The notes under the pieces were generated by a model. The model saw only the letters and a list, made by a program, of their open reading frames with translations. It was not told where the DNA came from and searched no databases. A stretch of 64,000 nucleotides of DNA from positions 800,001-864,000 of the forward strand of contig CAVWVI010000003.1 in assembly GCA_963758495.1 (NCBI GenBank), given 5' to 3'. This document shows positions 56,848-59,302 of the stretch, piece after piece; the first letter of the stretch is position 1; every line of letters starts with the position of its first letter. A program made the translations under genes and the position numbers. This stretch comes from Oligoflexia bacterium. Its GTDB lineage: Bacteria; Bdellovibrionota; UBA1018.

Positions 56848-57576
56848 ATGAAAAAAGAAAAATTATTGACTCATTTGACAACTTGGATCTTGCTTGTGTC
56901 CTGTCCAATCGCCACTCAGGCAGCACCTGAACAAAAACCGATCACCCGCGCAGAAATTGTCGACCGTGAGGGCAGGCAGATTTTGAATCGAGACGTTTCT
57001 CATATCATTTCTAGAGCGAAGTACTGGACGAAATTAGGTTTGGGGACAAGCATAGCTTTAGGTGGTTGCATGAGCTATTTACAAGGATTAGGTTGTGCAA
57101 ATCTGCTGTATGAGGTGATTCCTCTAGAATGTGGGTTAGGGTGTGTAGTCGGGATCTGCACAGGCTTTGTGGTTGATTGGATAGAAGATGGTCAGTGTCG
57201 TTCAGGTATGAAAAGAATTTGTCATGGTCAAATTATGGAGCGAGAGATCGAAGCACGAGAGATCAGCTTGCCTCCTGGTCCTGTCGAGCAAAGAATGGTC
57301 GACGAGGTTCAAGGTGATTCCTGCCCCATTTGTCTGAATGAGTTCTCCGAGTCAGATCAAAATGGCCAGAGACAATGGGTTGTAGTCACCCGATGCAACC
57401 ATAAATTCTGCAAAAGTTGCTTCGAGCAGCTCCTGAACAACGACGATCTTCGGCCAATGGGGGAGTCTCAAAACTCTGAGACACGTTGTCCATTCTGCAG
57501 GGCAGATCTTCTTCAATCACGCGAAATTGGAGTTTTTGAGGTAGCACCTATGAATGCCAACCGCCAAGACTTATAA
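56848..57576 (+). CDS. Exported protein with C-terminal C3HC4 RING finger
   Basis: Signal peptide (ATQA-A); hydrophobic Gly/Cys hairpin; CPIC...CNHKFCKSC...CPFCR. Confidence 0.85.
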   Translation: MKKEKLLTHLTTWILLVSCPIATQAAPEQKPITRAEIVDREGRQILNRDVSHIISRAKYWTKLGLGTSIALGGCMSYLQGLGCANLLYEVIPLECGLGCVVGICTGFVVDWIEDGQCRSGMKRICHGQIMEREIEAREISLPPGPVEQRMVDEVQGDSCPICLNEFSESDQNGQRQWVVVTRCNHKFCKSCFEQLLNNDDLRPMGESQNSETRCPFCRADLLQSREIGVFEVAPMNANRQDL

Positions 57577-57586
57577 TGAGTTAGAC

Positions 57587-59302
57587 CTACCGCGCATCCC
57601 AAGACTGATGACTTGCCCCAGAGGTCGGAGCAGGAGAAGATGAACTGTGAGGATCTGAAGTCCCAGAAGCCCCTTCCTTCACGCTACGACCAGAAACTAT
57701 TTCCTCAGACAGACACTCCTCATTTTCTGACTGAGGTGAATCAGGAGAATTGAATTGAGTCAGGATTTCAAGTGAGGTTTTTCCACACAGCTCGCCTCTG
57801 CATAAGGGGCATACAGGATCAGAAGCTGCAGCAGGATTTGATTCGCTTGAGGAGATAAAGAGTCTCTTAAAACAATCCTTGCAGTGCAAATGTCCACACG
57901 AAGGTGAAATGATTTTACCTTTTTCAAAAAGACAATCCATACACAGAGGACATTGAGTATCGCTCTCTAAGTTTGACAATTCCGTTTTTGTTTTTTCAAG
58001 CTGTGCCTTCAGGGCTTTCTGCTTCTCGAGTGAAGAAGAACCGTCTTTTTCCTTGAGTTGATGCAATTGAGTTTCAAATTGCTGGACTTGCTTATTTTTT
58101 TGCTCCCGAGATTTAAGCAATGCTTTTTTAACCAAAATAATATTATAGCATTGCTTCACTTTCTGGATTAAATCGGCTTCTGCAATATTTTCTAGATTCT
58201 TTGCTAAAATAGAGATCCCTTTTTCTGATTTCATATGCTTTTTCTTGCACTGGGCAACTCGTAACTCTCGAATCGCCTTCAGCCGGTTTACAAGCCTTGT
58301 GTTTCCAAACTGAATAGCCACTTTGATTTCTTGATTTAAATTCAACCGACCACTTTTCAACAATTCATCAAAAATGTTCGATTGCTTGTAATGGTCTGCA
58401 ATATAAAGAGGGGTTGCTCCACCTGCCATGGCCAAATCGGGCTTGGCTCCACCTAATAATAGCGCCCTCACTACTTCCACATTTCCTTCTTTAGATGCAA
58501 TAGAAAGAGGAGTTGCTCCTCCGTCTGTCATAGCCAAATCGGGCTTGGCTCCACCTGCTAATAGTGCTTTCACTACTTCCACATTCCCTTCTTTAGATGC
58601 AACATAAAGAGGAGTTGCTCCTCCGTCTGTCATAGCCAAATCGGGCTCGGCTCCCGCTAATAAGAGTGCTTTCACTACTTCCAGATGCCCGTTTTGAGCT
58701 GAAATATAAAGAGGAGTGACTCCTCCGCCTGTCAGGGCCAAATTTGACTTAGCCCCCGCTGATAAGAGCGCTTTCACTCCTTCCACATGCCCATTTTCAG
58801 CTGCAATAAGAAGAGGAGTTGCTCCGTCTGTCATGGCCAAATCGGGCTTGGCTCCCGATGATAAGAGCGCTTTCACTACTTCTATATGCCCTTCTTGAGC
58901 TGCAATATAAAGAGGAGTTGTACCATCCTCTTTGACTTGAAAATCAGGATCAGGAGCAGACTTAAGAATAAGACGGACGATCTCTGCATTACCCTTTCGG
59001 GCTGCAAAGCTAAGAAGGGTATCTTTCTTAGCCGTTTTTGAATTCACCTTTTTAAAATCAAACGCAGGTTGTAGATCTTTCTGAGATAACAGCTCTTTTA
59101 CTTTCTTAACGTCCCCTGCCCCAATGGCATTCAGAAGGTTTTCCTGAGGATCAGTCCTAAAATTAAATGGCCAGGCCATCGCATGGGTACTTGAAAGAAC
59201 TAAAAATAAGACAGAAAGGTAAAATACAAATCGAAACTTAACTTGAAATGAAGGAGCATGTTTAAAATAGAATTTAATCTGATCACTTAAAAATAAGTCC
59301 AT
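57587..59302 (-). CDS. Ankyrin-repeat, coiled-coil, C3HC4 RING protein with signal peptide
   Basis: HAMA-WPF signal; about 7-8 ankyrin repeats (G.TPL..A...G..EVVK.LL..GA); CPLC...CGHLHCKDC...CPLCR. Confidence 0.9.
   Translation of the reverse strand: MDLFLSDQIKFYFKHAPSFQVKFRFVFYLSVLFLVLSSTHAMAWPFNFRTDPQENLLNAIGAGDVKKVKELLSQKDLQPAFDFKKVNSKTAKKDTLLSFAARKGNAEIVRLILKSAPDPDFQVKEDGTTPLYIAAQEGHIEVVKALLSSGAKPDLAMTDGATPLLIAAENGHVEGVKALLSAGAKSNLALTGGGVTPLYISAQNGHLEVVKALLLAGAEPDLAMTDGGATPLYVASKEGNVEVVKALLAGGAKPDLAMTDGGATPLSIASKEGNVEVVRALLLGGAKPDLAMAGGATPLYIADHYKQSNIFDELLKSGRLNLNQEIKVAIQFGNTRLVNRLKAIRELRVAQCKKKHMKSEKGISILAKNLENIAEADLIQKVKQCYNIILVKKALLKSREQKNKQVQQFETQLHQLKEKDGSSSLEKQKALKAQLEKTKTELSNLESDTQCPLCMDCLFEKGKIISPSCGHLHCKDCFKRLFISSSESNPAAASDPVCPLCRGELCGKTSLEILTQFNSPDSPQSENEECLSEEIVSGRSVKEGASGTSDPHSSSSPAPTSGASHQSWDAR
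58390..58925. repeat. Near-identical 99/102-bp tandem repeats encoding ankyrin units
   Basis: AAGAGGAGTTGCTCC-like anchor recurs at about 58405, 58504, 58606, 58708, 58810 and 58909. Confidence 0.9.

Follow-up and report, generated by a model that had tools for sequence, protein, structure and literature searches.

The DNA analyzed here (the window, 64,000 nucleotides) lies within a 1.68-Mb contig of genome G000, which is 3.66 Mb long, 92% complete, and assigned to family UBA1018 of the Bdellovibrionota. Two genes, P0001 and P0002, stand tail to tail in it, 10 bp apart, bounded by two Lambda_Bor genes on one side and tamB-tamA on the other (Table 1), with open reading frames as the preliminary description had drawn them. 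The 10-bp gap is ordinary, because 114 of the 456 convergent neighbors in the genome are separated by ≤10 bp. The flanks had also been called AT-rich, and they are, at 30% and 19–25% GC relative to an intergenic median of 38% and a 10th percentile of 29%. The Lambda_Bor pair had no further paralogs in G000, a promoter scan gave a result no better than chance, and the flanking GH3 protein was best matched by records under the names Bdellovibrionales, Oligoflexia, or Bacteriovoracaceae, UBA1018 and FG-2 among them, with identities mostly of 56–70%. Elsewhere in the window, at 48330-54714, there is a conserved cluster of FHA-TPR, FHA, FHA-PAS, DUF192, and TadC genes that is likely part of a Tad/Kil system.

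Table 1. Features of the P0001–P0002 locus, in window positions.
Feature	Position	Strand	Description or basis
Two Lambda_Bor lipoprotein genes	55910..56652	-	Neighbors, without shown link to P0001/P0002
P0001 gene	56848..57576	+	242 aa: signal peptide, Gly/Cys hairpin, C3HC4 RING
Putative Sec-type signal peptide of P0001, residues 1-25	56848..56922	+	Sequence, hydropathy rule
Gly/Cys-rich hairpin of P0001, residues about 61-113	57028..57186	+	Marginally hydrophobic
RING-HC domain of P0001, residues 159-218	57322..57501	+	I161, L163, P215, linchpin R218
P0002 gene	57587..59302	-	571 aa: signal peptide, ankyrin array, helical hairpin, C3HC4 RING, Ser/Pro/acidic tail
RING-HC domain of P0002, residues 451-502	57797..57952	-	L453, P499, linchpin R502
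Two long helices of P0002, 375-418 and 422-449 (coiled-coil stalk), ahead of RING	57956..58180	-	AlphaFold2
Ankyrin array of P0002, N-cap and 7 repeats	58355..59149	-	Pfam; helix pairs in model
P0002 N-terminus, h-region 24-41, cleavage-like site 41-43	59174..59302	-	Long n-region, start codon uncertain

Reading the residues of the two open reading frames bore out the claim of a full C3HC4 ligand set with a CP.CR ending in each protein. All eight ligands are present (C159, C162, C183, H185, C188, C191, C214, and C217 in P0001, followed by R218; C451, C454, C469, H471, C474, C477, C498, and C501 in P0002, followed by R502). In each protein the second cysteine is preceded by a hydrophobic residue, the CP.C motif has its proline, and the last cysteine is followed by arginine. 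The roles of the hydrophobic E2-contact residues, of the proline before the last dyad, and of the arginine linchpin are established in RING E3 ligases. A strict RING pattern occurred in 12 of 3189 ORFs of the genome and in none in each of 20 residue shuffles, and is therefore beyond chance. The Pfam comparison that had been proposed as a check matched a RING model to P0001 at 6.7e-9 and zf-RING_2 to P0002 at 1.4e-5, the latter slightly under the cut-off. By sequence match the closest solved structure for the P0001 RING was RNF4 (E 4e-7), while the P0002 RING matched RNF4, BRCA1, and RING2 at E 1.6e-6 to 1e-3. Structure models gave the RING regions low confidence (pLDDT ~35–55); the model of P0001 was uninformative, and a fold search with P0002 returned ankyrin proteins only. 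The RING-domain tree proposed earlier as a test of origin (115 rows, 69 columns) left most branches unresolved, required 13 label changes for the Bdellovibrionota RINGs, and points to no donor.

Signal peptides were called by eye and by a hydropathy (h-region) rule, and one is common to all seven aligned members of the P0001-type family at the N-terminus. The Gly/Cys hairpin that had been taken to suggest membrane insertion is indeed found ahead of the RING, with G73 and G102 invariant in the seven sequences, but its hydrophobicity is marginal (19-residue Kyte-Doolittle maximum about 1.5), and a role as membrane anchor is possible. It matched none of the Pfam families at E ≤1. There are three paralogs of P0001 at G000:C1:160632-164471, and a profile search found three metagenomic relatives with identical layout; a search for near-length homologs recovered only P0001 itself among 73 candidates. 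A hairpin-RING family in genus g9 was considered as a homolog and is not claimed as one, the alignment being confined to the RING.

P0002 has the composition claimed for it, i.e. ankyrin repeats (Ank_2, 2.6e-57), a two-helix stalk, and a RING, and its relatives P0003 and P0004 have a comparably long N-terminus. The AlphaFold2 model has a mean pLDDT of 64, with the stalk helices at about 60–90. The ankyrin repeats have a DNA periodicity of 99–102 nt with copies as much as 85% identical, relatives have fewer repeats, and several of the repeats are, to judge from their sequence, recent duplicates. The stalk-RING module recurs at G000:C3:951635 and G000:C1:428433, and relatives with the full architecture were found in metagenomes at 46–49% identity and in genus g9 at 35%; a metagenome scan yielded generic ankyrins. 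In the order of its parts (ankyrin, coiled region, RING-HC) P0002 is like plant XB3/XBAT ligases, as had been proposed, but the XB3/XBAT RING model PF24921 scored 27.5 and 33.3 bits on the two proteins against a cut-off of 50, leaving an analogy of layout only, and P0002 differs in its signal peptide and in a module shuffled inside a bacterial lineage.

P0001 and P0002 are two of about 20 proteins in G000 that are E3-like by their domains. The genome has 15 matches to zf-RING_2 and 85 to Ank_2, and its RING layouts include RING-Lcl_C-like, ankyrin-RING-Lcl_C-like, hexapeptide-RING, and WWE-RING-DTC-RWD-ARTD15_N-PARP. The last is encoded at G000:C1:146136-148730 as 864 aa, in which a signal peptide precedes WWE, RING, Deltex C-terminal, RWD, ARTD15_N, and PARP domains. 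The h-region rule was passed by 16 of 20 RING/RBR ORFs vs 38.5% of 3189 ORFs, an enrichment that is overstated since paralogs are non-independent, and the four ORFs that failed appear signal-like by eye. Five ORFs at contig ends carry C2H2 finger arrays (G000:C1:573620-574888 and C4:1-2495), four of them combining a signal peptide with an acidic stretch and a basic motif like a nuclear-localization signal; the arrays have canonical linkers and were found in G000 only among 75 genomes of the family.

Six whole ORFs of G000 are of RBR type; they match a profile that was itself made from five of the six, and all of them have the Rcat cysteine. They lie at C5:154058-156496, C2:78015-80531, C3:745315-747771, C1:117049-118632, C4:226948-228537, and C4:41195-42997; ankyrins are present in four and an Lcl_C-like tail in two. 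A RING1-IBR-Rcat region aligned to ARIH1 at E 5.5e-11; another RBR-type alignment, to parkin at E 1e-5, keeps the catalytic Cys-x-His and has the last Rcat ligands altered. Atlas matches were to eukaryotic RBR clusters (0.92–0.95). The likeness to ARIH1, parkin, and HOIL-1 consists in the RING1-IBR-Rcat order and the catalytic cysteine; the differences are the added signal peptide and ankyrin or Lcl_C-like appendages, the altered last ligands, and a +2 histidine kept in only one of the six copies. RBR-type proteins also occur in G053, G054, G083, and G084, and wherever the motif was read in these four genomes and in G000 the Rcat cysteine is kept. The IBR matches of genus g9 had weak or no match to the RBR profile, and the g9 form may be a different and shorter one. 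A close relative of one G000 RBR is in a record named Bdellovibrionia bacterium, annotated automatically by NCBI as IBR-domain-containing. An ankyrin-RBR paralog is present in two separate pieces at G000:C3:741769-742863, and a shorter RBR-like form, with RING1 and then a single Cys-bearing IBR/Rcat-like domain, is found at G000:C3:187825-189321, C2:117112-118410, L380:5473-7128, and L382:12684-14213, which is possibly an undescribed ligase layout.

Within family UBA1018, RING matches were present in 9 of 75 genomes and IBR matches in 11, with a union of 12 (G020 was under the cut-off), and, among the RING ORFs of relatives with an intact 5′ end, most start, by eye, with a signal-like peptide. 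In a quick-search RpoB tree of 50 of the 65 family genomes with a match, plus 5 outgroups, one branch (SH-aLRT 94) was made up of G019 and the 11 positives that have rpoB. In an FlhA tree, 11 positives including G084 fell on one side of a branch with support 98, and 0 of 500 shuffles were as low; this tree is biased to near relatives because it was built from the best-scoring 30 of 69 matches. The clade member G019 (82% complete) had neither RING nor IBR. In a sample of 401 genomes of the phylum, 8 of the 11 RING-positive ones belonged to the UBA1018 family, and the 3 positives among 341 genomes outside it included one that is viral-looking and one with a single signal-peptide RING. The viral-looking one (L231 and L377, G189:C4, from another family) is a contig of giant-virus-like DNA with RINGs and a strong E2 match, and the single RING (L232:1456-2001, in G202, from a different family of the phylum) is possibly a second origin. 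Peptidase_S13 was tried as a marker of bacterial predation and set aside, since it is patchy (31/75) and does not set the clade apart.

The preliminary description had also proposed that the pair was acquired as an islet, and this was not supported. Codon usage of the P0001 and P0002 genes is at the 7th and 72nd percentile of the genome, i.e. within range, repeats exceeding 17 nt were not found in the flanks, and marks of foreign composition or mobility, by which an acquired islet would be recognized, were lacking at the pair; paralogs occur elsewhere in the genome and relatives in another genus. The comparison with relatives that had been called for found no RING pattern at 10 of 10 tamB loci and 45 of 45 GH3 loci. 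The placement of the two genes is thus specific to this genome, as far as these loci, all from outside the genus, go. Where the interval between tamB and GH3 was covered, in 3 of the 10 relatives' loci, there were four different genes, and three of these match ones at window 30085-35202. P0001 and P0002 appear to belong to domain-shuffled families that are old in the lineage and to have been placed independently, and the islet reading is replaced by that of a clade-wide repertoire.

It seems probable, from domain content and distribution, that P0001 and P0002 are Sec-exported RING E3 ligases that would act in the eukaryotic cytosol and that mark a clade living in or attacking eukaryotic cells, most likely microbial ones. 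The earlier suggestion of host-directed effectors is strongly supported by the wider genome and clade repertoire, in the sense of eukaryote-directed proteins. After export and signal cleavage the proteins would leave the bacterium by type II secretion, the Tad/Kil apparatus, vesicles, or lysis; the RINGs would load zinc once in the reducing host cytosol and bind host E2~ubiquitin, and targets would then be ubiquitinated. P0002 would pick substrates by the ankyrin array carried on its helical stalk, and P0001 could be held at a host membrane via its Gly/Cys hairpin, possibly S-acylated by analogy with GobX. E1, E2, and ubiquitin would most likely be supplied by the eukaryote, because E2 and ubiquitin were not found in clade genomes (80–95% complete): the E2 family searched, UQ_con, had no match in six of them, in a search that found one in G189, and PF00240 had none in five, where the control search was also blank. 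There is a cluster for type II secretion, but cytosolic delivery, the weak step, lacks an explanation because no injection system was found by the three markers searched: VirB4 and TssC were not found in any of five clade genomes, and each of the five had one FlhA-family gene and no second FlhA/SctV. Counterpoints to a eukaryote-directed role are that Cys-rich zinc domains face an oxidizing periplasm en route, that the C2H2 arrays are so confined, and that G019 is without RING and IBR. The absence of an ATP/ADP translocase from G000 and its unreduced genome, with flagellins and the Tad/FHA cluster, count against obligate intracellular life.

The same unreduced genome, with flagella and a Tad/Kil-like cluster retained and neither translocase nor injection system found, would also suit a free-living bacterial predator that releases eukaryote-directed E3s as a defense once eaten by a protist, and Peptidase_S13 is retained in 3 clade genomes. 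We regard such grazer defense as unlikely, since the many shuffled substrate-binding modules, the RBRs, and the nucleus-type C2H2 arrays appear better suited to sustained manipulation. Alternatively the RINGs could be zinc or disulfide scaffolds or E2 decoys in the periplasm, at the surface, or in bacterial prey, rather than ligases. The Sec route ends in an oxidizing compartment, Bd3460 is a Sec-exported ankyrin protein that protects Bdellovibrio against its own enzymes, and 33 of 75 family genomes have ankyrin matches, all of which would fit; yet both RINGs keep E2-contact and linchpin residues, the Rcat cysteine is retained in the RBR-type ORFs of five genomes where the motif was read, and the genome has a Deltex-type fusion. 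A non-ligase role is thus unlikely.

A role in the bacterium's own ubiquitin-like conjugation has in its favor three ThiF-family matches, but is very unlikely given that UQ_con had no match in six clade genomes with a working control, that PF00240 had none in five (with its blank control), that seven scanned neighbors of two full-length ThiF genes included no E2 or ubiquitin-like family, and that signal peptides would remove the E3s from ATP. Least probable of all is that the genes are misassembled or misbinned eukaryotic or giant-virus DNA, or a single recent islet. The nearest Atlas clusters to P0001 are giant-virus RINGs (0.76–0.78, leads only), and the RING region of G189 is viral-looking; however, P0001 and P0002 are intron-free and amid conserved bacterial genes of a long contig, their codon use is like the genome's, other genera carry related genes, the viral matches extend little past the RING, and a plasmid match was sought and none was found. 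This explanation is largely refuted.

Returning to the reading of P0001 and P0002 as eukaryote-directed ligases, we lean, with little more than even confidence, toward a Bdellovibrionota clade of several genera (class UBA1018/Bdellonasia) that turned from bacterial prey to eukaryotic cells, using modular Sec-exported ligases that would include the first bacterial RBRs and a Deltex-PARP, without type III, IV, or VI secretion and perhaps via type II or a repurposed Tad/Kil system. Bdellovibrionota are regarded as bacterial predators, and the E3-marked clade, if real, would represent a hitherto undescribed shift to eukaryotic hosts. Spirobacillus, of another class of the phylum, is a Daphnia pathogen. 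The clade supplies concrete genomes for FISH probes, candidates for an RBR class that has no known bacterial counterpart according to a 2026 review (in which bacterial counterparts of HECT, RBR, RCR, and RZ ligases are stated not to have been identified), and a testable puzzle, i.e. how Sec-exported zinc enzymes enter the cytosol when a known injectisome is lacking. The authors who proposed Bdellonasia as a class name took the Tad/Kil system to indicate predation, and neither "eukaryot" nor "ankyrin" occurs in their text (PMC13200544); sponge-associated Bdellovibrionota have been reported and interpreted as predators of bacteria (PMC9944714). Ubiquitin ligases in Bdellovibrionota, or the clade repertoire, were unreported among the open-access matches listed, and the group is unmentioned in the main text of a symbiont catalog preprint.

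RING/U-box effectors are already known from bacteria, and P0001 and P0002 are a variant with a signal peptide. The U-box ligases GobX, LubX, NleG, and AvrPtoB reach host cells through type III or IV systems, whereas such systems were not found here (VirB4, second FlhA/SctV; 5 genomes). RING domains activate E2~ubiquitin, and GobX, LubX, NleG, and AvrPtoB, the first two from Legionella, are U-box ligases, GobX being targeted to membranes by palmitoylation (PMC13720258); they share the allosteric RING-fold E3 mechanism, with GobX a model for P0001, but U-boxes are zinc-free in contrast to the zinc RINGs here. One bacterial E3 family has been noted to resemble RINGs (PMC13728172), and SneRING of Simkania negevensis is described as a zinc-binding RING active with host E2s (PMC12591485); SneRING is likewise a RING in a bacterium, whereas the RINGs of the P0001/P0002 type are canonical C3HC4, C-terminal, behind a signal peptide, and numerous. 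Neochlamydia has a RING/U-box-LRR expansion in NEX1b, with F-box proteins dominant and the term "signal peptide" absent from the paper's text (PMC4209131), and resembles the present clade in a lineage-specific expansion with E3 domains fused to repeat arrays; it belongs to another phylum, and our search of five clade genomes gave no U-box and a single sub-threshold F-box match. The closest precedent for the export route is Amoebophilus asiaticus, whose modular, signal-peptide-led effectors carry F-box/U-box domains, but these are Bacteroidota lipoproteins with APD prodomains, and the source passages that list their domains mention neither RING nor RBR (PMC3482391).

Some further genes of G000 may be mentioned. 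The Lcl_C-like domain caps diverse exported proteins (20 ORFs), mostly at the extreme C-terminus, and may be a targeting or uptake module. A protein kinase with a signal peptide is encoded at G000:C4:126110-127735, and an ORF at G000:C1:225412-226959, adjoining an ankyrin-RING gene, has a weak match to the Anthrax_toxA (adenylate-cyclase) family. A nine-member family of large signal-peptide proteins, with HEAT repeats in the members scanned, is located at G000:C3:1349076-1356260, C5:16319-25511, and C2:72162-75125.
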